Positions 3,052 through 46,537 of a stretch of 64,000 nucleotides of DNA are shown piece after piece. Under the pieces are notes generated by a model. That model was not told the origin of the DNA. It did no database searches and worked only from the letters and a program-made list of their open reading frames with translations. The translations under genes and the position numbers were made by a program. Positions within the stretch are counted from its first letter, which is position 1. Each line of letters opens with the position of its first letter. The DNA lies in IMG/VR virus record IMGVR_UViG_3300021964_000023, positions 32,001 through 96,000 of that record. One strand, given 5' to 3'. Origin of the DNA: a virus.

Positions 3052-3066
3052 TATTTATCCTAAATA
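3052..3066. promoter_or_regulatory. Back-to-back T4-type late promoter boxes
   Basis: GATAAATA on minus strand (3059-3052) and CTAAATA on plus strand (3060-3066). Confidence 0.55.
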
Positions 3067-25798: not shown

Positions 25799-28290
25799 GA
25801 TTTTATACGAACGTCCAGATGGTCGGGAACCAATTCCTCGTTAGGGGTTATGAAGACGGTAAACGCTTCACAACTCGCGAGAAGTGGAACCCGACCCTTT
25901 TTGTGCCCTCACAAAAGAAGACGTTCTATAAGACTCTTAGTGGAGAACAGGTTGAAGCAATCAAACCTGGGACCGTACATGAGTGCCGTGAGTTCATCAA
26001 AAAATATGATGGTGTAGAGGGATTTAAAATCTACGGTAATGAGCGGTTTATTTACCAATACATCTCTGAGAAGTATTCTGAGCAAGAGATCAAGTTTGAC
26101 ATTGGTAAGATCATGCTATCTACCATTGACATTGAGGTCGCTTCTGAGAATGGATTCCCAGATGTAGAGTCTGCTGCCGAGGAAGTTCTCCTTATCACCC
26201 TTCAGGATTATGCGACCAAGGAAATCATCACTTGGGGTCAGGGTCCATTCAAATTGAAGCAAGGGAATCATTATTACAAGCAGTTCAACAATGAAGAAGA
26301 TCTTCTTCATGACTTCATCAGTTGGTGGATTGACAACACCCCCGAAGTTGTCACTGGATGGAATAGTAAACTGTATGATATTCCATATCTAGTTCGCCGC
26401 ATTGATCGAATCCTTGGAGAGAAGTTGATGAAGAGACTCTCTCCATGGGGTCTTGTGACTGAGCAAGAAGTCTACATTCAAGGTAGGAAGCAAATGTCTT
26501 ATGACATTGGTGGAGTCTCTCAGTTAGATTATCTAGATCTCTATAAGAAGTTTACTTATACTAACCAAGAGTCTTATCGACTGGATCATATTGCAAATGT
26601 AGAGTTGGGTCAGCAGAAGCTAGACCACTCAGAATTTGATACCTTCAAGGATTTCTACACCAACGGTTGGCAGAAGTTTGTAGAATACAACATCATTGAC
26701 GTGGAACTTGTTGACCGATTGGAAGACAAGATGAAGTTGATTGAACTTGCGTTGACTATGGCATATGATGCTAAGGTCAATTATGAAGATGTGTTCTATC
26801 AAGTGAGGATGTGGGACACAATCATTTATAACTATTTGAAGGGAATGGGGATTGTCATTCCTCCCAAGGAAAAATCCGATAAAAACGAAAAGTACGCAGG
26901 TGCTTATGTCAAGGAACCGATTCCAGGAAAGTATGATTGGGTTGTGTCTTTTGACCTTAATAGTCTGTACCCTCACCTTATTATGCAGTACAACATCTCG
27001 CCAGAGACGCTTCAGGATACCAGGCATCCATCAGCAACAGTTGATCGAATTCTTAATGAAGAGATAGACTTTGAGGATTGCAAAGATAGTGCGGTCTGTG
27101 CTAACGGATCCATGTACCGCAAGAATACCCGTGGGTTCTTGCCAGAACTCATGGATAAGATGTATAGCGAGCGAGTGATCTTCAAGAAGAAGATGCTCAA
27201 AGCGAAGCAAGCATATGAGAAGACACCTACTAAAGAATTGGAGAAGGAAATTGCACGTTGTAACAATATTCAGATGGCTAAGAAGATCGCCCTTAACTCT
27301 GCCTATGGTGCTATTGGCAATCAATATTTTCGTTACTATAAACTTGCTAACGCCGAAGCAATCACCCTATCTGGACAAGTCTCCATCCGTTGGATTGAGA
27401 ACAGAATGAATGCCTATCTAAATAGGATTCTAAAGACAGAAGGCAAGGACTATGTTATTGCTTCTGATACTGACTCTATCTACCTACATCTTGGTCCACT
27501 TGTTGATCGCGTATTTCCTGAAGGAACTGACGATAAAGCAAAAGTAGTTGAGTTCCTTGACAAAGCATGTCAAGATCAGATCGAACCATTTATTGATAAG
27601 AGTTACAAAGATTTGGCAGAATATGTCAACGCTTATGATCAGAAGATGTTCATGAAGCGTGAGAACATTGCTGACCGTGGTATTTGGACAGCTAAGAAGC
27701 GATATATCTTGAATGTCTGGAACAGCGAGGGTGTTGCTTATGCTGAACCTAAACTGAAGATCATGGGTATTGAGGCAGTTAAGTCATCAACTCCTGCACC
27801 TTGTCGGGCAATGATTAAGGGTGCTCTAAAACTTATGATGACTGGTACTGAGGAGGACGTGATTGAATTTATTGATAAGAGTAGGCAAGAGTTCAAGCAA
27901 CTCCCTCCCGAACAGATCTCATTCCCAAGATCCGTATCGAATGTCAAGAAGTATGAGTGTAGAACTTCTATCTATACAAAGGGAACACCTATCCATGTCA
28001 GGGGTGCTCTTCTATTCAATCATCATGTAAAGGACAAAAAACTGACTAATAAATACTCACTCATCAATAACGGAGAGAAGATTAAGTTCTGCTATTTGAA
28101 GGAACCAAACCCACTGAGAGAGAATGTTATCTCATTCATTCAAGAATTTCCTAAGGAACTTAACCTTGACAAATATATTGACTACAACCTACAATTTGAC
28201 AAGAGTTTTGTTGAACCCGTAAAAACTATTCTCGACGCCATCGGATGGAATGTTGAGAAGACTGTAAACCTTGAACTATTTTTTGGATAA
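25795..28290 (+). CDS. gp43: Family B DNA polymerase
   Basis: DIEV exonuclease, SFDLNSLYP, KIALNSAYG, DTDS; no intein or intron seen. Confidence 0.98.
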   Translation: MRFYTNVQMVGNQFLVRGYEDGKRFTTREKWNPTLFVPSQKKTFYKTLSGEQVEAIKPGTVHECREFIKKYDGVEGFKIYGNERFIYQYISEKYSEQEIKFDIGKIMLSTIDIEVASENGFPDVESAAEEVLLITLQDYATKEIITWGQGPFKLKQGNHYYKQFNNEEDLLHDFISWWIDNTPEVVTGWNSKLYDIPYLVRRIDRILGEKLMKRLSPWGLVTEQEVYIQGRKQMSYDIGGVSQLDYLDLYKKFTYTNQESYRLDHIANVELGQQKLDHSEFDTFKDFYTNGWQKFVEYNIIDVELVDRLEDKMKLIELALTMAYDAKVNYEDVFYQVRMWDTIIYNYLKGMGIVIPPKEKSDKNEKYAGAYVKEPIPGKYDWVVSFDLNSLYPHLIMQYNISPETLQDTRHPSATVDRILNEEIDFEDCKDSAVCANGSMYRKNTRGFLPELMDKMYSERVIFKKKMLKAKQAYEKTPTKELEKEIARCNNIQMAKKIALNSAYGAIGNQYFRYYKLANAEAITLSGQVSIRWIENRMNAYLNRILKTEGKDYVIASDTDSIYLHLGPLVDRVFPEGTDDKAKVVEFLDKACQDQIEPFIDKSYKDLAEYVNAYDQKMFMKRENIADRGIWTAKKRYILNVWNSEGVAYAEPKLKIMGIEAVKSSTPAPCRAMIKGALKLMMTGTEEDVIEFIDKSRQEFKQLPPEQISFPRSVSNVKKYECRTSIYTKGTPIHVRGALLFNHHVKDKKLTNKYSLINNGEKIKFCYLKEPNPLRENVISFIQEFPKELNLDKYIDYNLQFDKSFVEPVKTILDAIGWNVEKTVNLELFFG

Positions 28291-28460
28291 TGGAACTTCC
28301 TATTAATGATGCAGAGCTCGCTACTATCGTAGGTGCGCTTCGTTTGGGTGGAGATACCTCTCTCTATCAAAAGTTGAAGATCATCAAGGAGATTCGTGAG
28401 GAGAACCCTGGCGGACCTTATAAAAGAATTGCTCGTGAAAAGTTTGGATTTGTGATCTAA
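28290..28460 (+). CDS. Small hypothetical protein (56 aa)
   Basis: MELPINDAELATIVGALRLGGDTSLYQKL...; TAATG-coupled on both sides. Confidence 0.7.
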   Translation: MELPINDAELATIVGALRLGGDTSLYQKLKIIKEIREENPGGPYKRIAREKFGFVI

Positions 28461-29476
28461 TGGATTTTTTAAAAGATATTGTAAAAGAGATTGGCGATGA
28501 CTACACTCAGCTCGCTGCAGATATTGACGAGACTGAGCAGTATGTTGACACAGGTTCGCACATTTTTAACGCACTCGTATCAGGTAGTGTATTTGGTGGT
28601 GTATCTGGGAACAAGATTACTGCTATTGCTGGAGAGTCTTCTACTGGAAAGACTTTCTTTTCTCTCGCTGTGGTTAAGAATTTTCTGGATTCTAACCCCG
28701 ATGGTTATTGTCTCTACTTTGATACTGAGGCTGCTGTTAACAAGGGACTACTCGCTAGTCGCGGAGTTGATCTAAACCGAGTTGTTGTGGTCAACGTTGT
28801 AACTATCGAAGAGTTCCGAAGTAAAGCACTCCGTGCAGTAGATATGTACCTCAAAGCGCCTGTAGAGGATCGCAAACCCTGCATGTTTGTGCTAGACTCT
28901 CTTGGAATGCTATCCACCGAGAAGGAGATTACAGACGCTCTCAATGATAAGCAAGTTCGGGATATGACCAAATCCCAACTTGTCAAAGGTGCGTTCCGTA
29001 TGCTCACTCTTAAGTTGGGTCAGGCAAACATCCCCATGATTGTTACTAATCACACCTATGATGTTATCGGTGCTTATGTCCCCACAAAGGAAATGGGTGG
29101 CGGTTCTGGTCTTAAGTATGCTGCTTCCACTATCATCTATCTCAGCAAAAAGAAGGAGAAGGATGGAACAGAAGTGGTAGGTAATATCATCAAGGCAAAG
29201 ACTGCTAAGTCTCGTTTAAGTAAGGAGAACAAAGATGTGGAAATTCGCCTTTATTATGATGAGCGTGGTCTTGATCGATATTATGGTCTTCTTGAACTCG
29301 GTGAGATTGGCGGGATGTGGAAGAACGTTGCTGGTCGATATGAGATGACCATAGATGGTGAGACTAAGAAAGTCTATGCCAAAGCAATCTACAAAGAACC
29401 TGAGAAGTATTTTACTTCTGAAGTTCTAGAGCAACTTGACGTTATTGCTAAGTCCGAATTTAGTTATGGTGAGTAA
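28460..29476 (+). CDS. uvsX: RecA-like recombinase
   Basis: AGESSTGKT, FDTE, LDSLG, MGGGSG. Confidence 0.97.
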   Translation: MDFLKDIVKEIGDDYTQLAADIDETEQYVDTGSHIFNALVSGSVFGGVSGNKITAIAGESSTGKTFFSLAVVKNFLDSNPDGYCLYFDTEAAVNKGLLASRGVDLNRVVVVNVVTIEEFRSKALRAVDMYLKAPVEDRKPCMFVLDSLGMLSTEKEITDALNDKQVRDMTKSQLVKGAFRMLTLKLGQANIPMIVTNHTYDVIGAYVPTKEMGGGSGLKYAASTIIYLSKKKEKDGTEVVGNIIKAKTAKSRLSKENKDVEIRLYYDERGLDRYYGLLELGEIGGMWKNVAGRYEMTIDGETKKVYAKAIYKEPEKYFTSEVLEQLDVIAKSEFSYGE

Positions 29477-30861
29477 TGGAGTCTATTGAGCACACGATTC
29501 TAAAGAATCTTTTATATAATGAAGAATACTCCCGCAAGGTAATCCCCTTTATCAAACCTGAATACTTCCAAGAGGTGTCTCAGAAAATTACGTTTGAGGA
29601 GATTGTTACCTTCATCACAACGTACAATACTCAGGTTACAGTTGAAGCACTCCTCATTGAGATTTCTAATAGGAAGGATATCAATGAAGGTATGCTCAAA
29701 GAGTTGCAGATTCTTATTACTAATTTGGAAGATAGTCCTGCAGATCTTCAGTGGTTGTTTGATACTACTGAGAAGTGGTGCCGTGATAGGGCAATCTATC
29801 TTGCTTTGATGGACTCTATTAACATTGCTGATGGCAATGATGAGAAGAAGAATCGAGATGCTATCCCATCTATTCTTAGTGAAGCATTGGCAGTCTCTTT
29901 TGACAATAATATTGGTCACGATTACTTTGCAAATGCTGATGAGCGATTCGACTTCTATCACCAGAAGCAGGAAAAAATCCCCTTCGACTTGGAATACTTT
30001 AACAAGATTACCAAGGGAGGTCTTGTTAATAAGAGTCTTAATGTCGCTCTTGCTGGGACAGGCGTCGGTAAGTCTTTGTTCATGTGCCATATGGCTAGCG
30101 CCTGTCTGCTTAACGGACATAGCGTCTTATACATTACAATGGAGATGGCAGAGGAGAAAATTGCTGAACGTATTGATGCAAACCTCCTCAATGTTCCCAT
30201 ACAGGAGATTGCTGATCTTCCTAAAGTGATGTTTGACAGCAAAGTCACAAAGTTGTCACAAAAAACACAGGGTTCTCTTATAATTAAAGAGTATCCAACT
30301 GCGGGCGCACATAGTGGACACTTTAAGGCACTTCTTAATGAGCTTGCACTTAAGAAGTCATTTAGACCTGATATTATTTTCATTGATTACCTTAATATAT
30401 GTGCTTCCTCTCGGTATCGCCAGAGCGGCACTGTCAATTCATATTCTTATATTAAGTCAATTGCAGAAGAGCTTAGAGGATTGGCTGTTGAAGCAAACGT
30501 CCCTATCGTTTCTGCCACGCAGACCACTCGTTCTGGTTATGGTAGCAGTGATGTTGACCTTACTGACACTTCTGAATCCTTTGGTCTCCCTGCTACTGCT
30601 GATCTTATGTTTGCCCTTATTAGCACAGATGAATTGGAAGAACTCGGGCAGATTATGGTGAAGCAGTTAAAGAATCGATACAATGATATTTCTATTAATA
30701 AGAGATTTGTTGTTGGTATTGATCGTGCTAAAATGAGACTGTATGATTGTGAGCAGTCTGCACAGAATGATGTCCTTGACAGTGGTCAAGACGAAGAGTA
30801 TGAGTTTGATGAGAAGAAGTCTTCTCGCAAAGAAAAGTTTGGATCCTTCAAGTTTGATTGA
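29476..30861 (+). CDS. gp41: Replicative DNA helicase
   Basis: AGTGVGKS, IIKEYPT, IDYLNI, SATQTTR, SESFGLP. Confidence 0.97.
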   Translation: MESIEHTILKNLLYNEEYSRKVIPFIKPEYFQEVSQKITFEEIVTFITTYNTQVTVEALLIEISNRKDINEGMLKELQILITNLEDSPADLQWLFDTTEKWCRDRAIYLALMDSINIADGNDEKKNRDAIPSILSEALAVSFDNNIGHDYFANADERFDFYHQKQEKIPFDLEYFNKITKGGLVNKSLNVALAGTGVGKSLFMCHMASACLLNGHSVLYITMEMAEEKIAERIDANLLNVPIQEIADLPKVMFDSKVTKLSQKTQGSLIIKEYPTAGAHSGHFKALLNELALKKSFRPDIIFIDYLNICASSRYRQSGTVNSYSYIKSIAEELRGLAVEANVPIVSATQTTRSGYGSSDVDLTDTSESFGLPATADLMFALISTDELEELGQIMVKQLKNRYNDISINKRFVVGIDRAKMRLYDCEQSAQNDVLDSGQDEEYEFDEKKSSRKEKFGSFKFD

Positions 30862-30863
30862 TT

Positions 30864-31412
30864 ATGAAGAGCATTAACCCAGAACTAATCGGTGATTTTA
30901 AATCCATTGATTACCCTGCACGCAGACAGTTCCCTAGCGATGAGATTGTAGAGCGTTGGAAAAATCTTGGTCATCTGTATGTCAATTATACTGGACTTCT
31001 TCGTGAAGAGTATCGCGGGGTTCCTGAATGGAGTCATGAGATCGTAAAGGTTCTTAGGAAGAAATATATTCCAGTTGGTGATAAGTGGTACTTTATGGAT
31101 AAGACTTCTTTGTCACTCTATAACATGCCCCCAGGCACAATTATGCCAGAGCATGAGGATACTTATCCAAGGTTCCGAGAGATCTATGGAGAACCAGACA
31201 TCAATAAAATTTGTAGAGTTCTAATTTTTCTTGAAGACTGGAAGACGGGACACTATTTTGAACTGGATCGTCAACCATATACCAAATGGAAGAAGGGTGA
31301 TTATCTTTATTGGACTGGAGATACTACTCACCTTGCAGCAAACCTTGGTAAAGAGAATAGATATACTATGCAAATCACGGCGACTTTAAAATGCGGAAGC
31401 GAAGAGCAGTAG
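30864..31412 (+). CDS. 2OG-Fe(II)/cupin oxygenase-like protein
   Basis: PPGTIMPEHED, HLAANLG..RYTMQIT. Confidence 0.7.
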   Translation: MKSINPELIGDFKSIDYPARRQFPSDEIVERWKNLGHLYVNYTGLLREEYRGVPEWSHEIVKVLRKKYIPVGDKWYFMDKTSLSLYNMPPGTIMPEHEDTYPRFREIYGEPDINKICRVLIFLEDWKTGHYFELDRQPYTKWKKGDYLYWTGDTTHLAANLGKENRYTMQITATLKCGSEEQ

Positions 31413-32104
31413 TAGATGATCTTGTAGAGCAGTATGGTAACTACTGCTCTACTTTTACTTTTAAGTTAAGATCTGGATTAGAAGGACAAATCCATAAAGA
31501 AGGATTTATTAATTGCTTCTGGCATAAAACTAGTAAATTAGTTTATATGCATATTGATAAGTGTGGAAGTACATCAGTGTCCTCTGCACTAAAGTTACAT
31601 TGTCCTAACTTTTTGTCTCTTGATTTATTAAAGACCGACAAAGATCCAGATTACCTTGCAAAATATTTTGTTGAGAGTGGTCACACATTTTTTGCTGTTA
31701 CTAGAGATCCAGTCCAACGGTGGATCTCTGGATTAAATGAATTTATGTGTAGATATAAACCACCAATTGATTGGGTCATAAAACAAATTGAGAATGGTAA
31801 ATATATTTTTGATGAACACACTGGACCTCAAACAGCATTTTTGAGATTGTGTTTGGAGAATGAAGGAAAGTTGAAACTTATTAAATTGGATGGTGATTTA
31901 TCTACAAAAGTAAATTTATTTGTAAAAAATCATACGTCAGATTATAAACCATTTGAAGTGCCTCACCTTAGAGATTCAAAATATTTCACCCCCAATTTCA
32001 AACCACTCTGTGCTAAGATATATACAGAATACGTAGAACCTAATAACAAAAGGTTTTGTGATCTTTATGAATCGGACTATGAGTTATACGCAAAAGGTGT
32101 CTGA
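31391..32104 (+). CDS. PAPS-dependent sulfotransferase (Sulfotransfer_2-like)
   Basis: HIDKCGSTSV (5'-PSB), RDPVQRWISG (3'-PB), HTGPQ. Confidence 0.8.
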   Translation: MRKRRAVVDDLVEQYGNYCSTFTFKLRSGLEGQIHKEGFINCFWHKTSKLVYMHIDKCGSTSVSSALKLHCPNFLSLDLLKTDKDPDYLAKYFVESGHTFFAVTRDPVQRWISGLNEFMCRYKPPIDWVIKQIENGKYIFDEHTGPQTAFLRLCLENEGKLKLIKLDGDLSTKVNLFVKNHTSDYKPFEVPHLRDSKYFTPNFKPLCAKIYTEYVEPNNKRFCDLYESDYELYAKGV

Positions 32105-32693
32105 CCCATTTCATGAGGTTGAAAAATTTGAGGACACTATCGCAAACTTTTATGGCGCAAAGTATGGAATCGCAACAGACTGTTGTACTCATGCTATTGA
32201 GTTGTGTTTAAGATATGAAGGATATGATAAGGTAACAATACCAGAACGCACCTATGTCTCCATTCCAATGACCTGCATGAAGATTGGTCTTGAATGGAGA
32301 TTTGATAATATTGAGTGGTATGATCAATACCATCTTGGTGGTACTAATATTATTGATGGTGCAGTTTTATGGAGACCAAATTCATATATCTCTGGGACTT
32401 ATTTGTGCTTGAGTTTTCAATATAGGAAGCATCTATCTTTGGGTAGAGGTGGAATGATCCTGACAGATGATAAGTACGCTGCGGAACAGTTGCGAATGAT
32501 GACCTATGATGGACGTAAGAAGTACGTTCCTTGGGGAGATCAAAACATTAGTGTGATGGGGTATCATTATTATATGACCCCAGAGACTGCAAAAAAAGGT
32601 ATTGAGGTATTCTGGAAAGTCAAAGACTCATTTCCTCTTATCAAGGACTATAGATCTTACCCTTATCTTCCTAATATGAGTGTATTCAAATGA
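32079..32693 (+). CDS. Short DegT/DnrJ/EryC1/StrS-family PLP aminotransferase
   Basis: CTHAIEL, IIDGA, SFQYRKHLSLGRGGMILTDD, GYHYYM. Confidence 0.8.
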   Translation: MSYTQKVSDPFHEVEKFEDTIANFYGAKYGIATDCCTHAIELCLRYEGYDKVTIPERTYVSIPMTCMKIGLEWRFDNIEWYDQYHLGGTNIIDGAVLWRPNSYISGTYLCLSFQYRKHLSLGRGGMILTDDKYAAEQLRMMTYDGRKKYVPWGDQNISVMGYHYYMTPETAKKGIEVFWKVKDSFPLIKDYRSYPYLPNMSVFK

Positions 32694-33340
32694 AAATTGC
32701 AAGAATTGATTTACCCAATCCTGGAGTTTTGCAAGCAGATTTAAGTCAAGAGGAAATTGATAATCTGTGGAAACTTATTCATAAGAATTCCCCAAAGACT
32801 GCAGAGTGGGATGAAAATAAATTATTGAATATTGATGTTGAGTTTAAACAGTGGACTATAACTGATGATGGATCATTTAAACAAAATGTTTTGATGCCAC
32901 TAGTTCAAGAGTATTTGGATCAATTTGGAACTCCATTTCGTCATAAGACAAGTAATTATCATGATCTTGTTTTAAATAGATTTTGGACTAGAGCATCTAC
33001 TGAGGGAGACTATCAAAGTTTACATGACCACGAGGGCATCTTTACTTTTGTTGTATGGATGAAAATTCCTTTTGATGGAGAAAAAGAGAACACAGTCCAA
33101 TCTGGATTTAGACCATATGCCAGCGATTTTGGACTAGTGTACCCAAATACATGTGGAACTTTAATTAAGCAAAACTGGACTTTAACTCCAGAAATGGAGG
33201 GAACTATGCTTTTATTTCCCAGTGATATAAATCATATTGTTTATCCTCACTTTACGACTAAAGAGTACAGGATATCTGTTGCTGGTGATATTTCATTAAA
33301 TAGTCATATTTCATCTGATGTAATTAATCCAGCATTATGA
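32690..33340 (+). CDS. 2OG-Fe(II) oxygenase-like protein
   Basis: HDH..LFPSDINHIVYP..RISVAGD. Confidence 0.75.
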   Translation: MKIARIDLPNPGVLQADLSQEEIDNLWKLIHKNSPKTAEWDENKLLNIDVEFKQWTITDDGSFKQNVLMPLVQEYLDQFGTPFRHKTSNYHDLVLNRFWTRASTEGDYQSLHDHEGIFTFVVWMKIPFDGEKENTVQSGFRPYASDFGLVYPNTCGTLIKQNWTLTPEMEGTMLLFPSDINHIVYPHFTTKEYRISVAGDISLNSHISSDVINPAL

Positions 33341-34191
33341 ATAAACTGAAGGGACTTCCTCCCATAATGTACTTGAACTTAGATCATAGGACTGATAGGA
33401 AGGAACATATCGAAGGTCAATTTAAAAAGTGGGGGATCACTGATTTTACTCGGTGGTCTGCTTCTAGGTTTTCTACTAAAAAAATTGATGAGTGGGGACA
33501 TAAGTTGGACTTAATGCTTCTCGCTCCATCTGATGCATCAATCGTCATGAATGAATTTACAATGATGATTGAATGGTATGAATCTGGAATATCAGAGAAC
33601 CTTCTCATCATTCAGGATGATCTTTGTTTTGATCTTGTTGAGTATTGGCCATTTGATTGGGAAGATGTAATGAAAGCACTTCCGTATAATTGGGAAATTG
33701 TGCAGTTTTATCATTGCCATGACTATGAAATAAAAATGCATCTTAATCCTAGAGAGTGGCATAGTTCCTCTGCTGCCATCTTTATGGTTAACAGATCTTT
33801 TGTTGAGAAGTTGATGAAGATTCATCTACAACCAGATGGATCATTTAAGTTAGATCAAAGTCTTAGAGATCTTCAAGTTCCTAGAGAATCGTATAGTAGT
33901 GATGACTTTTTGATTTATCAGGTGGGTAAGTCTTATTCATTGCCATTACTAACTCTAGATCCAAAATTAGCAGTGGCACAAGATAATAAGCAGCAATCTG
34001 ATGATGATTATGATCCAATCATTGCTGTTTATCATAATAAAATATATGATATTCTTGCCACCTCAAGCATCAAGAAATGGTGGGAAGAGAAGAGTTCTAG
34101 ATATACTGCTGACGATATTTTATCCTGGGGAGGTGCAATTCACGAGACAATGGTAATGAAGTTGCCAAGGTATGATCATATAGCGCCATGA
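33337..34191 (+). CDS. GT25-like glycosyltransferase 1
   Basis: YLNLDHRTDRK, IIQDD, LPYNWEIVQ. Confidence 0.65.
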   Translation: MNKLKGLPPIMYLNLDHRTDRKEHIEGQFKKWGITDFTRWSASRFSTKKIDEWGHKLDLMLLAPSDASIVMNEFTMMIEWYESGISENLLIIQDDLCFDLVEYWPFDWEDVMKALPYNWEIVQFYHCHDYEIKMHLNPREWHSSSAAIFMVNRSFVEKLMKIHLQPDGSFKLDQSLRDLQVPRESYSSDDFLIYQVGKSYSLPLLTLDPKLAVAQDNKQQSDDDYDPIIAVYHNKIYDILATSSIKKWWEEKSSRYTADDILSWGGAIHETMVMKLPRYDHIAP

Positions 34192-35033
34192 GTAAAATAA
34201 AATTTGAGACTAGTGTAAGATTTAAAGGTTTACCTAAAATCATCTATAGAAATTACGATAGTAATATAGATGGTAAAGCGTTTATGGAGAATCAATTCTC
34301 ACACTGGGTTATTGATGATTATCATAGGCACTCTAATAAGTATCATGAAGATAACTATTCTGAGTGGGAAGATTTAATTCTTGATGATCAACTTCCAATA
34401 ACACCAAAAGAATCTGCATATTGCTTAAATGTTATTGACTCTATAGTTGAATGGTATGATTCAGAATCATCTGAAGTGTGTATTTTTGCAGATGACTGTG
34501 TTGATTTTTCTGTGTCTGATGATTGGATGTTTGATTGGCAATTTTTAACTCATCATCTTCCTTATAATTGGGATTGTATTCAGTTTTATGCATCTCCAAA
34601 TAGATCAATTAAGATGCATCTTCACCCTTGGATTGATCAAAATAAATCACAGCGATGCTGCATGGTTACTAGGAGTTTTGCAAAGCGTTTAAAAAAGTTT
34701 CATTTGATTGATGGTAAATATAAACTATCATACCCATCACCAAATAGATCTTTATTGTTTACTGAATTTGGATCTCTTGATTCATTCTTTTATGATCTTG
34801 GAATAACATATACTCTTCCTATATTTGCATTAAATACTAAAGGTGAATTTAGTCATACCGAAAAAATATCATCGGATGCTATTAGATATTGGTGGGAGAA
34901 TAAATCACCAGTGTTCTCAAACTTTGAATTCTTTCACTACAATAAGGGAGACAAAGAGTGGAAAATGGAAGTTCAGTTTGATTCTGATGGAGTTTATATG
35001 GATCCTATGGAAGGTATAATGATATGGATTTAA
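34188..35033 (+). CDS. GT25-like glycosyltransferase 2 (divergent)
   Basis: FMENQF, IFADD, LPYNWDCIQ. Confidence 0.55.
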   Translation: MSKIKFETSVRFKGLPKIIYRNYDSNIDGKAFMENQFSHWVIDDYHRHSNKYHEDNYSEWEDLILDDQLPITPKESAYCLNVIDSIVEWYDSESSEVCIFADDCVDFSVSDDWMFDWQFLTHHLPYNWDCIQFYASPNRSIKMHLHPWIDQNKSQRCCMVTRSFAKRLKKFHLIDGKYKLSYPSPNRSLLFTEFGSLDSFFYDLGITYTLPIFALNTKGEFSHTEKISSDAIRYWWENKSPVFSNFEFFHYNKGDKEWKMEVQFDSDGVYMDPMEGIMIWI

Positions 35034-35929
35034 ATAATAAACTAAAGGGATTTCCAAAAGTTCACTTCTTCAATCTTGACAATAGGAATGATAGAAGGGA
35101 ATGGATGGTTGATCAGTTTGATTACTATGGTATTGAGTATGAACGTATCTCTGGAACAAAATATCTTGCTTCTGAAAGTAGTAAGTGGAAACATCTAATC
35201 AAAGATATTGAAGATTACAAACTTCTAGTTCCTATTGCAGCTAATGCTGTATCTCATCTTGATTTTTTAAAGAGGTGGTTTAAAGAGTCTAATGATCCAT
35301 ATGTTCTTCTAATGGAGGATGATTATGATATTAGACTGATTGACTATTGGCATTTTGATTGGCAGACAGTGCTTGATAGACTACCTTATGATTGGGACTG
35401 CCTTCAAATGGGATTTGAAAATCCAGATGGAATGAGATTCCATTTGCATCCTATTGAAGCAGCACATGATTTTGGTCCTGTCCTTTTAAGAAGATCATTT
35501 GTTGAGAAGTTATTGGATCTTCATTGTGTCGGAGATCAATACAAGTTAGTAAATACTGTTGCTAATGCTGCATGGAATAGGCAATCTGATGTTGCTGGTT
35601 CTGGAACTGTTGATTACTTTATGGTTCATACTGGAAGAACCTACTGTTTGCCTTTGATTACTATTAATGCAAACTTTGGTAGTTTTGAAAATAATAGTAT
35701 TATTCAAAAATTCTATAGGAGTGAGGGAGATATTCTTGCCAGGAACACCCAATACTTTTGGTGGCAACATGAGAGAGATCGATTTACTTTAGATGAATTT
35801 TTTACCTATGGTACTAGGAAGCATGATAGTATGGTTCTAACACCTAGTAATTACCGTACATTTGATATCACTGGGAAGTCATATAAATTATATGGGGAAT
35901 CATACCTTGATTATTTTAGAGGAACATGA
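35024..35929 (+). CDS. GT25-like glycosyltransferase 3
   Basis: NLDNRNDRR, RISG, SH, LLMEDD, LPYDWDCLQMG. Confidence 0.72.
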   Translation: MDLNNKLKGFPKVHFFNLDNRNDRREWMVDQFDYYGIEYERISGTKYLASESSKWKHLIKDIEDYKLLVPIAANAVSHLDFLKRWFKESNDPYVLLMEDDYDIRLIDYWHFDWQTVLDRLPYDWDCLQMGFENPDGMRFHLHPIEAAHDFGPVLLRRSFVEKLLDLHCVGDQYKLVNTVANAAWNRQSDVAGSGTVDYFMVHTGRTYCLPLITINANFGSFENNSIIQKFYRSEGDILARNTQYFWWQHERDRFTLDEFFTYGTRKHDSMVLTPSNYRTFDITGKSYKLYGESYLDYFRGT

Positions 35930-36729
35930 ATTTATACGATAAGTTTGCTGGGGTTCCTACCTTCTATTACTTTAATCTAGATTCAAATACTCCATTGAAA
36001 AAGCACATGGAGAGAAATCTAGATAACTTAAAGATAAAGAATTATCAGAGGGTATCTACTTCAAAGTACACAAACAGTAATGTAAGTGAGTGGAAAGATT
36101 TATTGGTCAATAGATCTAAGTATAAACTTCCAATCGCTACCGCAGCATATTCAATATCAATTCTTGAATTCTTGAAGCATTGGTATGAGAATACTGAAGA
36201 AGAAACTTTAATAATAAGTAAGGATACTATTGACTTTGGGTTAGTTGAACACTTCCATTTTGATTGGGAGTTTTTAATGAAAAAGCTTCCCTATGATTGG
36301 GACTGCTTTATCTTGGGATTTGAGAATCTAAATTATATCCCATTTTACTTACATCAAATTATGCCAGCCCACACTTATAATACTGCTCTTCTTAATAGAA
36401 GGTATGTGAAGAAGTTGATCAAACTTCATTGTGTTGGTGATAAGTATAATCTATCAAACTTTAGTGCCAACAAAAACTTTGGACTCCATTCTGGAACTCC
36501 AGATTATTTTATTGGTCATTGCGGTAAAACTTATTGCTTACCAATGTTCCCAAATCATACTGATTTCTTTGATAAAAAGACAAAGAAGTATATTTTGGTT
36601 AAGGGATGCAGATTGGCGTATTATGATTGGTGGAGAACTGATAAGAAAAGATTTAGTATGGATGATATATTTACGTATGGAAAAACCAATGATAGAGGGA
36701 TGTTGAAAAAAATATCGAAGTACGTTTAA
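35926..36729 (+). CDS. GT25-like glycosyltransferase 4 (EDD motif degenerate)
   Basis: YFNLD, SKDT in place of EDD, LPYDWDC, GKTYCLP. Confidence 0.55.
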   Translation: MNLYDKFAGVPTFYYFNLDSNTPLKKHMERNLDNLKIKNYQRVSTSKYTNSNVSEWKDLLVNRSKYKLPIATAAYSISILEFLKHWYENTEEETLIISKDTIDFGLVEHFHFDWEFLMKKLPYDWDCFILGFENLNYIPFYLHQIMPAHTYNTALLNRRYVKKLIKLHCVGDKYNLSNFSANKNFGLHSGTPDYFIGHCGKTYCLPMFPNHTDFFDKKTKKYILVKGCRLAYYDWWRTDKKRFSMDDIFTYGKTNDRGMLKKISKYV

Positions 36730-36730
36730 A

Positions 36731-37531
36731 ATGGATCTGCGAAACAAGTTAAAAAACTTCCCACACATTCACTATGTAAATCTCGATAATCGTACTGATC
36801 GTAGAGAATACATGGAGGAGCAGTTTAATTATTGGAAGTTACCATTCACTAGAATATCAGGATCAAAATTTTTAGCATCAACTATCGAAGACTGGGTGTC
36901 CGATTATGTTGTTGGTACTGTCAAGGGAATACCTGCTTATGCCATTGGTAATGCAGTAACTCATCTTGAATTTATGAAGAATTGGATTCGGAATAGTGAT
37001 GATGATTATCTTCTTCTTATGGAAGATGATTATGATTTAACTCTCTTTGAATACTGGAATTTTGATTGGGATTATTTGATGTCTCGATTACCTTATGATT
37101 GGGACTGTCTTCAAATTGGGTTTGAATCTTCAGAGTTTATACCATTCTTCCTTCATCCAAAGTTGAGACATTCATATTTTGGTCCAGTAATTTTGCAGAG
37201 AGATTATGTTGAGAAGATACTACATCTTCATTGCTACAAGGATAAGTATAGATTCGATCATACGACTGCAATACGTGGTTTTAGTGGTAACTCAACTACT
37301 GTGGATTATTTTGTGGGTCACACTGGCAAGACGTATTGTATTCCGTTAATAACAACCAATGTTAAGTTGCCAAGTACAGAGTTTGGTCTTGACATAAAAC
37401 GCAAACACCACGAGAATTCTAGACATGCATATTATTATTGGTGGATGGCAAAGCACTTAAAATTCTCTTTGGATGATTTTTTTACTTTTGGAAAACGAAA
37501 TGATCACAAGATGGTGATTTTAACAGCATGA
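36731..37531 (+). CDS. GT25-like glycosyltransferase 5
   Basis: YVNLDNRTDRR, RISG, LLMEDD, LPYDWDCLQIG. Confidence 0.72.
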   Translation: MDLRNKLKNFPHIHYVNLDNRTDRREYMEEQFNYWKLPFTRISGSKFLASTIEDWVSDYVVGTVKGIPAYAIGNAVTHLEFMKNWIRNSDDDYLLLMEDDYDLTLFEYWNFDWDYLMSRLPYDWDCLQIGFESSEFIPFFLHPKLRHSYFGPVILQRDYVEKILHLHCYKDKYRFDHTTAIRGFSGNSTTVDYFVGHTGKTYCIPLITTNVKLPSTEFGLDIKRKHHENSRHAYYYWWMAKHLKFSLDDFFTFGKRNDHKMVILTA

Positions 37532-38493
37532 ACTCAAGAAACGAATGGGATAAACTTAAGAAGGTAATAGTTGGAGTTGCTGATTTTGCTCAGATACCTG
37601 AGATGGACAAAAGTCTCAGGACTATCAATTATGCAGATCGCTCTGATGTATCTTCGGTTAAAGTTGGACCTTATCCTCAACAAGTCATTGATGAGGCAAA
37701 TGAGGACCTTGAAATCTTCTGTGACTTTTTGCGCGGTGAAGATGTAGAGGTTCTAAGACCAAATAGAGAACCAACCGAATATTATAATTACTGCCCTAGA
37801 GATTCTGTGTTTATTCATGGTGATCTTGTATTGGCGACTCCGCAACCCTTGAGGTCAAGAGTTGGAAATTGGAGATCGTTTAAGCATCATCTTGAAAACG
37901 TTTTTGAGATGCCATGCTCTTACCATGATGGACTTTATAACGAAAAGTGTATTGGCAATCCAGACATTCTTGCATTGACTGAAGTTACACCAGCTTTTGA
38001 TGCTGCTAATGCAATTAGAGCAAATGGCGATGTGCTTTACTTGCAATCAAATAGTGGTAATGCTGCAGGAGCACATTTACTTCAGAAGTTATTAAATTGT
38101 GATGCACATGTATCTGTTGTTAAAGATATCTATACTTATGTGCATATAGATACTACAATTGCATTTTTACGAGAAGGATTGTTGATGGTTAATCCTACTA
38201 GAGTTACAGATCCTGGTAGTCAACTACCACATCCATTCAACACTTGGGATGTGATTAATGCACCAGATCCTATTGACATTGGATATTATCCTGGGTATAA
38301 TAATGCTTCGGAGTGGTGTAACATGAATTTGTTTAGTGTATCACCAAATTTGGTTGCTCTTGAAGAACATCAGCATCCAACTAGAGAGGTATTAGAAACA
38401 TATGGTATTGAGTGTGCTATGCTTCCCATGAGGCATCAAAGAACTCTTAGTGGAGGATTCCACTGTGTAACGTTAGATCTGGAGAGAGGATGA
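37528..38493 (+). CDS. Amidinotransferase (AGAT/StrB1 family)
   Basis: NEWDKLKKVIVG, CPRD, FDAAN, HIDTT, GGFHCVTLDL (Asp-His-Cys triad). Confidence 0.9.
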   Translation: MNSRNEWDKLKKVIVGVADFAQIPEMDKSLRTINYADRSDVSSVKVGPYPQQVIDEANEDLEIFCDFLRGEDVEVLRPNREPTEYYNYCPRDSVFIHGDLVLATPQPLRSRVGNWRSFKHHLENVFEMPCSYHDGLYNEKCIGNPDILALTEVTPAFDAANAIRANGDVLYLQSNSGNAAGAHLLQKLLNCDAHVSVVKDIYTYVHIDTTIAFLREGLLMVNPTRVTDPGSQLPHPFNTWDVINAPDPIDIGYYPGYNNASEWCNMNLFSVSPNLVALEEHQHPTREVLETYGIECAMLPMRHQRTLSGGFHCVTLDLERG

Positions 38494-39821
38494 AAGTAGG
38501 TATTATTGGGACAGGTAGACTTGGTGGTCCAGTATCAGAGGCGTTTGCGGAATCTGGTCATGAAGTATTTGCTTATGATATTGCTGGTGGCAAAAATATC
38601 AAAGTAACTGAAGAGGGTGGATCCAGAAAGTACTACAAAACTATTAAAAGTGTGGTGCAAAAGACTGCTATGGTTTTTGTTGCTGTCCCTACACCGCACA
38701 GTGAAGAGTATGATGGTAGTTCTCCATGTATGGATTTAGAACCAAAAGATTTTGACTATACTATAGTTAAAGAAGTTTTAACCGAAGTTAACAAATATGC
38801 ATCATCTCACCAGCAAGTAATTTTAATTTCTACAGTTCTTCCTGGAACTATTAGAGAGCAGCTTCTTCCTTTGGTCCCTAATTGTACTCTCATTTACAAC
38901 CCATATCTTATTGCTATGGGTACAGTAAAGGATGACTTTAGAAATCCAGAGATGATAATGGTTGGGACAGAGAATAATTTGTCGATCGATAATATTTTGT
39001 TTAGATCCTTAATCAAGTTCTATTGTAGTTGCAGTAGTATTTTTGATAAAGATGATGATAGGCGAGAAGATAATCCAGAATTTTTGAATAAATTTGTTAC
39101 TGGAACATATGAAGAGATGGAATGCGTAAAGGTGTTTTACAATACCTTTATCAGCAGCAAAATATCTTTCGTTAACATGATTCAAGATGTTGCAGAACGT
39201 CAAGGAAATATTGATGTTGACGTTGTAACCAATGCTCTTACTAGTGCATCTACTAGAATTATTAGTTCTGCATATATGAAAGCGGGTATGGGTGATGGTG
39301 GTGCTTGTCATCCGAGAGATAACATTGCTCTTAGATATCTTGCTCAAAAATTAGATCTGGGATATGATATCTTTGAATCTGTAATGCGTTCTAGAGAGCA
39401 ACAAGCAAAAAATCTTGCTGAGTTCCTAGTTAAACTTGCAGATACTTGTAGAACTCCCATTGTTATTCATGGCAAAGCATACAAACCTAAAGTGCCATAT
39501 ATTGACGGTAGTTACAGTCTTTTAGTTGGTCATTATGTTGAACAACTTGGTGAGAGAGTTAGATATGTTGACCCATATACTGGTGATAAGTGGAGTGGTC
39601 CAGCAATTTTCCTACTCGCACATAGTGTAAGTACTACGTATAGGTATTGGGAAAAACAAAACACTGGTGATGAAGTATACTGTGATTTCCCATTTGGTAG
39701 TGTTATTGTTGACCCTTGGAGGAAGTTTAAAGCTCCTGATGATGAACCTCTAGAGGTAATTTATTATGGTAATACTAGAGGCAAAGCAGAACACGACGCT
39801 AAAAGCATAGACAAATCCTAA
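38490..39821 (+). CDS. UDP-glucose/GDP-mannose dehydrogenase family protein
   Basis: GTGRLG, VPTP, STVLPGT, K..NTF..KISFVN, GGACHPRD. Confidence 0.9.
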   Translation: MKVGIIGTGRLGGPVSEAFAESGHEVFAYDIAGGKNIKVTEEGGSRKYYKTIKSVVQKTAMVFVAVPTPHSEEYDGSSPCMDLEPKDFDYTIVKEVLTEVNKYASSHQQVILISTVLPGTIREQLLPLVPNCTLIYNPYLIAMGTVKDDFRNPEMIMVGTENNLSIDNILFRSLIKFYCSCSSIFDKDDDRREDNPEFLNKFVTGTYEEMECVKVFYNTFISSKISFVNMIQDVAERQGNIDVDVVTNALTSASTRIISSAYMKAGMGDGGACHPRDNIALRYLAQKLDLGYDIFESVMRSREQQAKNLAEFLVKLADTCRTPIVIHGKAYKPKVPYIDGSYSLLVGHYVEQLGERVRYVDPYTGDKWSGPAIFLLAHSVSTTYRYWEKQNTGDEVYCDFPFGSVIVDPWRKFKAPDDEPLEVIYYGNTRGKAEHDAKSIDKS

Positions 39822-39858
39822 TTTTTAAAGTAAACTATTAGTAAATCAAACTAAAATT

Positions 39859-40263
39859 ATGTCCGTTGATACTCAAAAGTACGTCGAGTTCGTCAAGCAA
39901 ACCACCAGTGCTCCTAGTCTAGACTATCCTGTCTTGTCTGCTCGACTGTCCGAACTTGAAGCAAATGGTTGTAATGTCACTCAATTGATGACCGCTGCTT
40001 TTGGTCTGTCTGCTGAAGCAGGTGAGTTTACCGAAGTTGTGAAGAAGATTGTCTTCCAAGGTAAACCTTATAATGAAGAGAATGCATTCCACATGAAGCG
40101 AGAGTTGGGAGATATTATGTGGTATCTTTCTCAAGCATGTATGGCACTGGATATTAGCATCGAAGAAGTTATTCAAATGAATTTTGAGAAACTTAGTGCT
40201 CGTTATCCTGAAGGTGCATTTAGTATTGAACGTTCTGAGAATCGTGTAGAGGGTGATCTGTAA
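39859..40263 (+). CDS. mazG: MazG-like NTP pyrophosphohydrolase
   Basis: GLSAEAGEFTEVVKK, ELGDIMWY, KLSARYP. Confidence 0.95.
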   Translation: MSVDTQKYVEFVKQTTSAPSLDYPVLSARLSELEANGCNVTQLMTAAFGLSAEAGEFTEVVKKIVFQGKPYNEENAFHMKRELGDIMWYLSQACMALDISIEEVIQMNFEKLSARYPEGAFSIERSENRVEGDL

Positions 40264-40295
40264 GCCTAGATAGTGCTATAAAAAATATAGTAAAA

Positions 40296-41789
40296 ATGAA
40301 GATAACTAATATTTGCATACTAGGTGGAGGGACCGCTGGTTTTATGACCGCAGCGGTCCTTTCTCAGTATGTAAAGAATTGCAATCTTGATATTAAAATA
40401 AAGTGTGTATATTCTAGCAAAATCGGAATCATTGGTGTAGGAGAATCTACCCAACTTGCAATAAATGATATCTTTCAGTTTTTGCGACTGAGAGATTCTG
40501 ATTGGATGTCTAAGTGTAATGCAACTTATAAAACAAATGTGAGATTTGAATCTTGGTGTAATCCTGGAGAAAGTTTTTACTATCCATTTGGAGATTTGAC
40601 AGGTGAGGATTTATCCCCATTTTTTATCCTACAAGAATTATTTCCCGATCAAATAGATAAGACTCATTTTGCTAGGTATGCTAGAGATCACTCCAGATTT
40701 GCTGAACTAAACAGACTGACAGATAAGGGGTGGGAATTTCATGAACTAACTGCATATCATTTTGATACTCATTTGCTATCTAAAGTTTTATATGATGTCT
40801 GTATCAGTAATGACGTAGAGTTTGTTGATGACGAATATTTGAGTTCGCATCAAAACTCCAGGGGCATTGAATATATTGAGTGTGAAAATACGGGACTGCA
40901 TTATGCAGATTTATTTGTAGATTGTACTGGATTTAAATCTCTTTTGCTTGGTGAGGAGATGGGAGTTCCTTTTGTACCCTACTCTAAAACTTTGATTAAT
41001 AATAGAGTTGTTACTGCAAAATTAGAATATACAAATAAAGAAGAGCAGTTAAAAAATTATACAAATAATGTCACTATGGATAATGGGTGGTGTTGGGAAA
41101 TACCTCTTTGGGATGGATTGTCTGTTGGTTATGTTCATTCTTTGAAGTTTACAACAGAAGATAAAATAGAGAAAGAATTTATCAAAAGATATGGGGTAGC
41201 GCCATCGAGAGTTGTTGAATTTAAAACTGGTAGGAGAGAAAGGGCGTGGGTTAAAAATGTTGCTTCTGTTGGATTATCTTTTGGTTTTATTGAACCTTTA
41301 GAAGCAACAGGATTGGCATCAATCATAACTAATATTTTTAGACTTTTAGAAGTATTCTCAGCAAACCATAGAATAAATTCCTTCGATAGAGAGTTATTCA
41401 ATTCTTCAGTTATCGGTGAGTTGGATGGACAAAAAACATTTATTGATATTCACTATTCATCTGCTCAAAGATCTGATACAGATTATTGGTATCATGTAAC
41501 TAATGAGATAGAATATGATTGGAATTTTGGAAACTGTAAAAGATCTATAGATGCTACTGTTGGTGATAGAGATTATTCAGATAAAAAATTAAACGGTGGA
41601 GTTCCATTTATTCTTGTTGGTAATGAATATTCTCCAACGTCTTCTGGGTTTGTAAAGTCTCTTGGTGATAAAAAGCACTATGAAAGTGCGTTGAATGAAT
41701 GGATTGAATATGATTCTATATCTAATCAAACAGTTTTAGAGCAACCAACTACGTATCAGTTTTTGAAGAACAATGTTTATAGATCATAA
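40296..41789 (+). CDS. prnA: Flavin-dependent tryptophan halogenase-like protein
   Basis: GGGTAG, GVGEST, ATYK, DCTGF, WCWEIP (WxWxIP), FIEPLEATG. Confidence 0.88.
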   Translation: MKITNICILGGGTAGFMTAAVLSQYVKNCNLDIKIKCVYSSKIGIIGVGESTQLAINDIFQFLRLRDSDWMSKCNATYKTNVRFESWCNPGESFYYPFGDLTGEDLSPFFILQELFPDQIDKTHFARYARDHSRFAELNRLTDKGWEFHELTAYHFDTHLLSKVLYDVCISNDVEFVDDEYLSSHQNSRGIEYIECENTGLHYADLFVDCTGFKSLLLGEEMGVPFVPYSKTLINNRVVTAKLEYTNKEEQLKNYTNNVTMDNGWCWEIPLWDGLSVGYVHSLKFTTEDKIEKEFIKRYGVAPSRVVEFKTGRRERAWVKNVASVGLSFGFIEPLEATGLASIITNIFRLLEVFSANHRINSFDRELFNSSVIGELDGQKTFIDIHYSSAQRSDTDYWYHVTNEIEYDWNFGNCKRSIDATVGDRDYSDKKLNGGVPFILVGNEYSPTSSGFVKSLGDKKHYESALNEWIEYDSISNQTVLEQPTTYQFLKNNVYRS

Positions 41790-42387
41790 AGAGATTAATA
41801 CTAAACTTGCTTTATTAAACACATATCATGATACTATCTTAAATGAGTATCGTTCTAATATCTCTGAATTAGAATTTAGAGATTTTACTAATGAGCAAAA
41901 CTATTATATTAGTAGATACAAACAAGGATATCCTATTGGATATGATACCTATTATAAAGCCCGCTTAAAATCTGATAAGTTTGGGTGGCACATTGCCCCT
42001 CTTTTTGCGGAACAAAAATTGTATACCCGTAATACCATTAAACTCCCAACACTAACATCAGTTCTTAGTCAAATTGGACTTACTGATGTTTGTGCAATTA
42101 ATGTATTAGATCCAGGACAGTCTTTGAACTGGCACATTGATAAAGATTATATTCCTGGAGTTCAGTTACTCAGAATAATTTGGGGTATGGATATTGGTGA
42201 AGGATCATGCATTCAAATTTTGAATGATGATTATAGTATAGAAACAAAGATAATGAAGAACAAAGAGTTCTATATCTTTCATCCTCAGTCACGGCATAGA
42301 GTTGAGAATCTTGGAGATAATCCTCGTGCTGTTGTCTGCATAGACTACATTACTGATGCTAAATATAGAAAGTCTGGCATATTGTAA
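41773..42387 (+). CDS. Asp/Asn beta-hydroxylase-like 2OG oxygenase
   Basis: LDPGQSLNWHID, HRVENLGDNPRAVVCID. Confidence 0.75.
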   Translation: MFIDHKEINTKLALLNTYHDTILNEYRSNISELEFRDFTNEQNYYISRYKQGYPIGYDTYYKARLKSDKFGWHIAPLFAEQKLYTRNTIKLPTLTSVLSQIGLTDVCAINVLDPGQSLNWHIDKDYIPGVQLLRIIWGMDIGEGSCIQILNDDYSIETKIMKNKEFYIFHPQSRHRVENLGDNPRAVVCIDYITDAKYRKSGIL

Positions 42388-42527
42388 TGGCTAAAGAATA
42401 CAAGACTAGTGTAACTCTTCCATTGACAAAAGAATTAGTGGGTAAGGTTCTTAGGAAGACTAAATTTAAAAATCTTGATGAATATTTAAATGCAAAACTC
42501 CAGGAAGATCTAGAAAGATTAACTTGA
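42387..42527 (+). CDS. Small protein (46 aa), possible ribbon-helix-helix
   Basis: MAKEYKTSVTLPLTKELVGKVL..LDEYLN; TAATG-coupled. Confidence 0.45.
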   Translation: MAKEYKTSVTLPLTKELVGKVLRKTKFKNLDEYLNAKLQEDLERLT

Positions 42528-42533
42528 TACAAT

Positions 42534-42541
42534 TATAAATA
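42534..42541 (+). promoter_or_regulatory. Late promoter
   Basis: Perfect TATAAATA 20 nt before ATG 42561. Confidence 0.75.
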
Positions 42542-46536: not shown

Positions 46537-46537
46537 G

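Follow-up and report, generated by a model that had tools for sequence, protein, structure and literature searches.

What a phage might make with an amidinotransferase and a row of glycosyltransferases set beside its replication genes is the question raised by an uncultured T4-like cyanomyovirus from the IMG/VR collection. The stretch analysed (hereafter, the window) is 64,000 nucleotides long, bases 32001-96000 of a 107-kb contig (IMGVR_UViG_3300021964_000023, here G000; estimated 56% complete), and the locus in question, here called the island, is a block of 11 open reading frames (ORFs; O1 to O11, Table 1), all on the plus strand, that fill 30858-39821 between the helicase gene gp41 and mazG. 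Our preferred reading, which we hold at somewhat better than even odds, is that the island is an auxiliary glycan-synthesis cassette of T4-like cyanophages, its enzymes all soluble, that makes a guanidino-sugar glycan on a cytoplasm-facing acceptor. The cassette is real and conserved and is one of the phage glycan-synthesis islands, a class already known; the chemistry proposed for it has good grounds but is a prediction.

Junctions within the island range from −47 to +1 nt, and 7 of the 11 counted from gp41 are 4-nt ATGA overlaps, in agreement with the preliminary description of 11 overlapping or abutting genes that run on from the gp41 stop. The DNA of the surrounding replication block is ~75% identical to that of the Synechococcus phages S-SKS1, S-SM2 and Bellamy. 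In S-SKS1, gp41 abuts mazG directly, and in S-SM2 a single small ORF separates the two; because the genes are adjacent or nearly so in those phages, the 9-kb block is an insertion relative to them. The position of the island beside replication genes is an insertion site, since mazG follows gp41 in phages without the cassette. Nothing matched the island in a megablast search of 50,697 phage records, a collection from which the source record itself may be missing.

Table 1. Genes of the island and its flanks, in window coordinates
Feature	Assignment	Position	Strand	Evidence	Remark
O1	Small Fe(II)/2-oxoglutarate oxygenase, probably AspH/LpxO type (PF05118)	30858..31412	+		conserved core
O2	Carbohydrate-type sulfotransferase (Sulfotransfer_2)	31391..32104	+	PF03567	type A cassette
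O3	Miniature DegT-family aminotransferase, large domain only	32058..32693	+	PF01041	conserved core
O4	2-oxoglutarate-Fe(II) oxygenase, phrog_81 family	32690..33340	+	PF13759; phrog_81 E = 1e-21	window-specific insert
O5	GT25-like GT-A glycosyltransferase	33337..34191	+	paralog alignment; phrog_2835 E = 6e-33	
O6	GT25-like paralog	34188..35033	+	paralog alignment	variable metal-binding motif
O7	GT25-like GT-A glycosyltransferase	35024..35929	+	fold match	the modelled paralog
O8	GT25-like paralog	35926..36729	+	paralog alignment	variant motif
O9	GT25-like GT-A glycosyltransferase	36731..37531	+	phrog_2835 E = 6e-43	
O10	StrB1-like, predicted arginine-dependent amidinotransferase	37528..38493	+	1bwd match	conserved core
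O11	NDP-sugar 6-dehydrogenase (UDP-Glc/GDP-Man dehydrogenase family)	38490..39821	+	PF00984, PF03721	type A only
gp43	Polymerase	25795-28290			replication block
UvsX	UvsX	28460-29476			replication block
gp41	DnaB-like helicase	29476..30861	+	PF03796, E = 3e-18	left border, outside cassette
mazG	mazG	39859..40263	+	PF03819	right border, outside cassette

Relatives of the amidinotransferase O10 occur on at least 196 IMG/VR contigs, from marine and lake uncultured cyanophages, and the island proteins were mapped onto the best 80 of these. Two arrangements were found. In the type A cassette (~35 contigs), 10 of the 11 island genes stand in the same order, always between gp41 and mazG and at amino-acid identities down to ~55%, some contigs having a sixth transferase; because this order recurs in ~35 independent contigs, the arrangement of the island is not due to chance. 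The type B cassette (~40 further contigs and the isolate S-SCSM2R) is rearranged, with several genes resembling glycosyltransferase family 25 (GT25) followed by a contiguous O3-O1-O10, and lies at other genomic sites, far from replication genes. It has no dehydrogenase, and a sulfotransferase match was found in one type B contig only (L079, 30%). A core of O1, O3, O10 and three to six GT25-like transferases is common to both types (~75 contigs). Recombination has made the cassette a mosaic. The identities of O3 and O11 co-vary across contigs, which was considered as a sign of functional coupling and set aside, being largely explained by O11 tracking the gp41/mazG backbone.

Among the core proteins, O10 is a clear amidinotransferase of the AGAT/StrB1 fold, as first proposed, and is predicted to be arginine-dependent. 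It matches the streptomycin-pathway enzyme StrB1 (1bwd) across residues 4-320 with E = 2e-53 (185 bits), compared with E = 4e-35 (125 bits) for HsvA and E = 1e-28 (104 bits) for AGAT, SxtG lying in the range 1e-28 to 4e-35. Its FDAAN, HIDTT and GGFHC align with the StrB1 motifs that carry the catalytic Asp, His and Cys, and these positions are mostly nearly invariant in an alignment with distant representatives; in Pfam-A, no family was listed for O10 at E 0.01. All phage amidinotransferases fall into one clade, with a support of 100 in the Shimodaira-Hasegawa-like approximate likelihood-ratio test (SH-aLRT). Apart from S-SCSM2R, the only isolated phages with an O10 relative (~24% identity) are T4-like Campylobacter phages of the CP220/CPt10 group, in which it is annotated as a possible glycine amidinotransferase.

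The aminotransferase O3 (start probably at the ATG at 32067 or 32079) belongs to the DegT family, as the preliminary description had it, but is not of full size. It scores 62 bits against PF01041 (cut-off 19.8), the match falling in two separated stretches; profile positions ~100-185 and all those after ~250 are missing, and the two-domain architecture of ~360-400 residues is absent. Of 55 unique homologs from related contigs, 52 are 195-216 residues long, two are broken stubs and one has 292 residues. The short form is the normal one: O3 is a miniature variant of the family, not a fragment. D100 (IIDxA) and K124 (SFQxxK) are invariant in 37 sequences and, by motif position, are the predicted aspartate facing N1 of pyridoxal 5'-phosphate (PLP) and the predicted Schiff-base lysine, respectively. 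An AlphaFold model (predicted local distance difference test, pLDDT, 90) matched GDP-perosamine synthase (3dr4, E = 2e-10), ArnB, WbpE and BtrR in Foldseek searches with probability 1.0 and TMq 0.65-0.72, and AHBA synthase was also among the fold matches. The dehydrogenase assignment of O11 likewise holds: beyond its two Pfam domains, the protein matches GDP-mannose dehydrogenase (1mfz) at E = 7e-17, with GGACHPRD aligned to GGSCLPKD around the catalytic Cys, and TIGR03026 at E = 6.5e-40 (137 bits, under the 189.8 cut-off).

The five paralogs O5-O9, the last four of which are 27-31% identical to the first, were initially described as GT25-like, a claim whose paralogy and fold stand while all five fall short of the Pfam GT25 family (PF01755; O7 at 19.6 bits and O9 at 18.1 against a cut-off of 24; O5, O6 and O8 unmatched). 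Against Protein Data Bank (PDB) sequences, a profile of the five reached no better than E = 0.098, to Mimivirus R655, and the relationship was confirmed by fold search. For the O7 model (pLDDT 88), VIA-align to R655 gave Z 14.7 (root-mean-square deviation 3.3 Å over 191 aligned residues); human COLGALT1 followed with its GT25 domain at Z 14.4 and a bacterial beta-1,4-galactosyltransferase at Z 13.1, and solved GT25 members outscored other GT-A families, for example GT13 at Z 12. The GT-A fold on which the earlier description depended is thus present in the model, and O5-O9 are confirmed through it, at fold level, as GT25-like GT-A glycosyltransferases. Their acidic DxD-type motifs, the putative metal-binding sites, differ in constancy. 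O5 keeps QDD in every type A ortholog, and EDDYD is kept in all 28 O9 sequences and in 32 of 34 type A O7 sequences; O8 orthologs keep a variant (R/K)D(T/I)xD, and in O6 the motif varies among orthologs (DDC, EDN, EDI, DEN). O6 also evolves faster than any other cassette gene: its identity between type A loci is 34-66%, versus 55-94% for O5. Relatives of O9 occur in 98 cyanophage records, mostly as a single copy. The same genome has two further GT25-like genes outside the island: one at G000 104771-105571, which scores 44.6 bits against Pfam GT25 and E = 2e-49 against the island profile, and a sixth paralog of the window at 2215-3027 (minus strand; E = 4e-67 to that profile), which lies in the structural-gene region directly behind an ATAAATA late-promoter motif at 3052-3058 (minus strand).

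Of the two 2-oxoglutarate (2OG) oxygenases originally listed, the first is supported through its family and the second loses its place in the cassette. O1 (start likely at the ATG at 30864) has no Pfam match of its own, but 17 of its 28 homologs match PF05118 (best E = 1.4e-7), and H99-x-D101...H158...R168, corresponding to the HxD...H triad and the 2OG-binding Arg, is invariant in all 28. Searched against the PDB, the O1 profile gave chance-level matches only, with no TET/JBP or clear AlkB match listed. It is found in both cassette types. O4 has no counterpart in the 80 related loci, where O3 abuts O5. The window holds an O4 paralog at 22867-23490 (plus strand; 41.5% identity, also of the phrog_81 family), and homologs of this type occur in 135 cyanophage records without a common position, one of them lying between uvsX and gp41 in P-SSM2; O4 is a roaming cyanophage oxygenase gene and is to be dropped from the pathway. 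The remaining accessory protein, O2, is a sulfotransferase, as first assigned, at 27.5 bits against a PF03567 cut-off of 22. Judged by eye, its KCGSTS and RDPVQRWIS look like loops for binding 3'-phosphoadenosine-5'-phosphosulfate; a sequence search of the PDB found no solved relative.

Cellular relatives of the module were sought by a genome scan with a nine-row O10 alignment. The closest genomic relatives of O10 are in Bdellovibrionota (40-47% identity), where five loci hold it together with a homolog of the miniature aminotransferase (43-50% identity, E ~1e-50). An O11-like dehydrogenase (44-46%) is present in three of the five, and in two of those three an epimerase/dehydratase of the short-chain dehydrogenase/reductase (SDR) type lies between the dehydrogenase and the miniature aminotransferase. 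One locus reads, co-directionally, twitch-domain radical SAM (S-adenosylmethionine) enzyme, dehydrogenase, SDR epimerase/dehydratase, miniature aminotransferase, uncharacterised protein and amidinotransferase. The Ugd-ArnA-ArnB and WbpA-B-E amino-sugar pathways follow the same logic of dehydrogenase, SDR enzyme and aminotransferase in this order, and the co-location offers independent support that O3, O10 and O11 may act on one sugar-nucleotide-like substrate. The bacterial clusters (L154 4552-14270, L095 8671-17717 and L092 7949-11026) contain the twitch-domain radical SAM gene (NF033640, 378 bits), further radical SAM genes, GT2 and YdjC genes, and a conserved protein of 437-486 residues that is 33% identical between two genomes and has no Pfam or PDB relative. 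Two candidate links were rejected: the radical SAM protein encoded in the S-SCSM2R cassette resembles those of the Bdellovibrio cluster no more than radical SAM proteins do in general, and a 161-residue ORF after the Bdellovibrio miniature aminotransferase is no O1 homolog.

From these parts a pathway can be proposed. A sugar, most likely nucleotide-activated, would be oxidised, with O11 forming, where the cassette is of type A, a uronic acid at C6. A ring carbon would be converted to a ketone, either by an SDR dehydratase or oxidase encoded elsewhere in the genome or by O1; O3 would turn the ketone into an amine, and O10 would move an amidino group from arginine onto that amine to give a positively charged guanidino sugar. 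The five GT25-like transferases could then extend an acceptor already facing the cytoplasm by a short oligosaccharide, which O2 could sulfate. The succession of ketone, amine, guanidine and glycosyl transfer that the preliminary description envisaged is supported, the core being kept in both cassette types and O10 and the miniature aminotransferase recurring in the five Bdellovibrionota loci; its sulfated or uronic sugar keeps a basis in O2 and O11 of type A but becomes an accessory feature of that type. The varying number of transferases (three to six) and the fast evolution of O6 are usual for glycan loci and support the glycan reading. SDR genes, including one for GDP-mannose 4,6-dehydratase, are present elsewhere in all four cassette-bearing genomes examined.

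In the source genome, such genes belong in part to a second glycan locus just past the right end of the window (L170 1089-9571, equivalent to G000 97089-105571), with genes for GDP-mannose 4,6-dehydratase, an Fcl-like SDR, GT11, GT6, DUF7796, GT4 and GT25 proteins (the last being the 44.6-bit gene above), a HAD phosphatase fused to a nucleotidyltransferase, and two uncharacterised proteins. From its genes, that locus looks made for a fucosylated glycan. A third phage SDR epimerase/dehydratase gene lies at 14060-14770 (plus strand; G000 46060-46770; PF01370, E = 6e-59), far from both glycan loci.

Several points weigh against the guanidino-sugar pathway. Each substrate and product, the order of the steps and the acceptor are inferred for the island proteins from gene content, folds, catalytic motifs, conservation and co-occurrence, which are themselves observed. 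The keto-forming step has no assigned gene inside the cassette. The C-terminal domain is missing from O3, as are ~60 residues of its large domain, and its activity and NDP-sugar binding are predictions. The transferases all fall under the Pfam GT25 cut-off, and O6 and O8 have a diverged DxD motif. Type B cassettes are without O11 and, save in L079, O2, so neither of those steps is essential to the core chemistry. The Bdellovibrionota clusters have radical SAM genes and no GT25-like ones, and what the module helps to make may differ in those bacteria.

The ATAAATA late-promoter motif is absent from the plus strand over 28055-42535, and the island genes are therefore probably transcribed with the early or middle replication genes, riding on their transcripts. 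A perfect sigma-70 consensus (TTGACA-17-TATAAT, 12/12) lies at 38273-38301 (plus strand) inside the amidinotransferase gene, ~190 nt upstream of the dehydrogenase start, and is the sole perfect match in 18 kb, but the total count of promoter-like sites is at chance level. We discarded a possible terminator hairpin at 31424-31452, in the 5' end of O2, on account of a z-score of just −1.85, a conservation that tracks the coding sequence, and pairing that decays in distant relatives. Two genes follow mazG at 40296-42387 (plus strand), one for a flavoenzyme resembling tryptophan halogenases (PF04820, E = 2e-89) and one for a PF05118 oxygenase resembling Asp/Asn hydroxylases, the latter staying beside mazG in many type A contigs.

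On what would the glycan be built? No island protein has a transmembrane segment, and the island encodes no flippase or polyprenyl-phosphate transferase; the chain would therefore be assembled on something already on the cytoplasmic side. Given the glycan reading, a host envelope glycoconjugate of the lipopolysaccharide or lipooligosaccharide (LPS/LOS) type comes close to an even chance, a phage or host protein is distinctly less probable, and some other acceptor is rather unlikely too, if a little less so than protein. The envelope is weakly favoured because S-SM2 has its single GT25-like gene among phosphoheptose isomerase and GT11 genes, in a cluster of LPS/capsule type, and because both families have members known to act on LPS (LpxO in PF05118, LgtB/Lic2A in GT25). 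A modified envelope glycan would change the surface of the infected cell. Counting against this choice, the GT25-like gene of the same genome behind a late-promoter motif (2215-3027, minus strand) would also fit virion glycosylation. That the acceptor is hydroxylated, as first suggested, stays conjecture.

The best-surviving alternative, though we think it unlikely, is that O1 hydroxylates a side chain of a virion, other phage or host protein and that the GT25-like enzymes build an O-linked guanidino/sulfo oligosaccharide there, in parallel with collagen hydroxylysine glycosylation and with the virion glycans of giant viruses and mycobacteriophages. All the island enzymes are cytoplasmic, O1 probably belongs to a family of protein Asp/Asn hydroxylases, and the best structural matches of O7, COLGALT1 and R655, act on protein, R655 having been proposed as a collagen glycosyltransferase (PMC9546862). 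The GT25-like gene in the structural module, with its late promoter motif, points the same way, but the island itself is served by no late promoter; O7 matches the bacterial LOS GT25 structure nearly as well (Z 13.1), O1 is not PLOD-like, and no candidate acceptor protein co-occurs with the cassette. No (GXY)6 run was found in any frame of the window, and PF01391 is absent from the complete cassette-bearing genomes G001 and G002; among the genomes checked, only S-SCSM2R has a match, a 978-residue open frame with collagen repeats (PQ898602 ~175000-175860, minus strand; L171-L173; E = 2.5e-11).

An improbable alternative is a small-molecule natural product, such as a pseudo-oligosaccharide bearing guanidino and sulfate groups or a compound of aminoglycoside or nucleoside type, acting within the cell or released. 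Among solved structures StrB1 comes closest to O10, the fold matches of O3 include BtrR and AHBA synthase, the Bdellovibrionota clusters sharing the module resemble biosynthetic gene clusters with their several radical SAM enzymes, and genes of the S-SCSM2R cassette have been annotated as serving 'antibiotic synthesis' (PMC12801897). Yet neither a sugar-phosphate cyclase (PF01761) nor an inositol-1-phosphate synthase (PF01658) was found in G000, two complete genomes or S-SCSM2R; the island has no kinase, exporter or resistance gene; and its five to six transferases come from a family known in LPS and glycoproteins and vary in number and sequence as in glycan loci.

More improbable again is that the amine amidinated by O10 is no sugar but a compound such as glycine, a polyamine or an amino acid, O10 being a mere neighbour of an ordinary glycan cassette. 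The acceptor specificity of amidinotransferases is not readable from sequence, HsvA (which acts on a polyamine), AGAT and SxtG are also clear relatives, and cyanophages encode SpeD. Nevertheless, O10 is linked with the miniature aminotransferase in Bdellovibrionota as well as in both cassette types, shares ATGA overlaps with the genes on either side, and scores far higher with StrB1 than with HsvA or AGAT.

Last, hypermodification of DNA, in which O1 would hydroxylate a base as JBP does for base J (a pathway of a 2OG oxygenase and a GT-A-like transferase) and the paralogs would add a guanidino/sulfo oligosaccharide that protects phage DNA from host nucleases, is very improbable: a positively charged sugar on DNA is plausible chemistry and the island lies inside the replication block without late promoters, but type B cassettes lie elsewhere and the position is an insertion site, which weakens the coupling to replication from which a DNA acceptor had first been proposed; ThyA-like hydroxymethylase (PF00303) and C5 methylase (PF00145) genes are absent from G000, two 100%-complete cassette-bearing genomes and S-SCSM2R; the O1 family matches the AspH/LpxO type, and five to six transferases are, to our knowledge, unprecedented for DNA, although the negative for the 5-hydroxymethylcytosine and 5-hydroxymethyluracil families may leave JBP-like direct hydroxylation as a route. 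Such a product would have no known precedent on DNA, either as an oligosaccharide or as a guanidino sugar.

Returning to the guanidino-sugar glycan, we compared the cassette with characterised systems. The nearest chemical precedent is the StsC/StrB1 part of streptidine synthesis in Streptomyces griseus, in which a DegT-family transamination of a ketone is followed by amidino transfer from arginine by an enzyme of the StrB1 fold. Unlike that pathway, the phage genomes have no inositol-phosphate synthase, cyclase or StrI-type dehydrogenase and the island no kinase, the phage aminotransferase is half-sized, the module is set among five to six GT-A transferases, and its substrate is probably a sugar, not a cyclitol. 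The combination of NDP-sugar 6-dehydrogenase, keto-forming oxidase and DegT aminotransferase recalls Ugd-ArnA-ArnB (making UDP-L-Ara4N) and WbpA-WbpB-WbpE (making UDP-ManNAc3NAcA); the Bdellovibrionota relatives reproduce the order of those pathways exactly, and the O3 model matches ArnB and WbpE in fold. The phage cassette differs in having no SDR or GFO oxidase, in adding an amidinotransferase and in the missing small domain of its aminotransferase. The transferases share the GT-A fold of GT25 enzymes (LgtB/Lic2A type, COLGALT1 and R655; Z 13-15), and O7 and O9 keep an EDD motif; they differ in having a C-terminal helical extension with an almost invariant WW pair, and form five tandem, anciently diverged orthologous groups, two with a changed metal motif.

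Among phage systems, the glycan clusters of P-SSM2, S-SM2 and S-SCSM1 likewise consist of soluble sugar-nucleotide enzymes and transferases, with a single GT25-like gene, and are thought to remodel the host surface. The source phage has such a cluster too, the Gmd, Fcl-like, GT11, GT6, GT4 and GT25 locus just past the window; those of the three isolates have no amidinotransferase, miniature aminotransferase, sulfotransferase or fivefold GT25-like expansion. As in PBCV-1 A064R, the Mimivirus fibril and mycobacteriophage capsid glycosylation, cytoplasmic virus-encoded GT-A transferases would handle unusual sugars without host secretion machinery, but here there is no sign that a virion protein is the acceptor and the island lacks late promoters. 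S-SCSM2R, the only cultured phage found with the cassette core, shares it in ORF301-310 (PQ898602; O3 61%, O10 66% and O1 31% identical, with four GT25-like genes), in a different order and at a different site, with an added radical SAM enzyme, GT2 and large 2OG oxygenase and without the sulfotransferase and dehydrogenase. Its genome description is the only paper we found that touches the cassette genes; there, by annotation only, the miniature aminotransferase, radical SAM enzyme and amidinotransferase are called 'antibiotic synthesis genes' and the transferases cell-wall genes (PMC12801897). The gene combination is thus uncharacterised, as initially stated, but has not gone unnoticed.

Glycan genes are known in large cyanophages, with none tied to a product, and we found amidino transfer from arginine onto an amino sugar described for no virus; we know of no bacterial surface glycan for which it is described either. 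If the reading of the island as a guanidino-sugar glycan cassette is true, it would add a new charged sugar and a new miniature class of sugar aminotransferase, and would open a concrete way to learn how cyanophages modify the surfaces of their hosts or their own particles. It would also mean a drain on host arginine, relevant in nitrogen-poor oceans. Because the cultured phage S-SCSM2R carries the cassette core, the question is directly testable.

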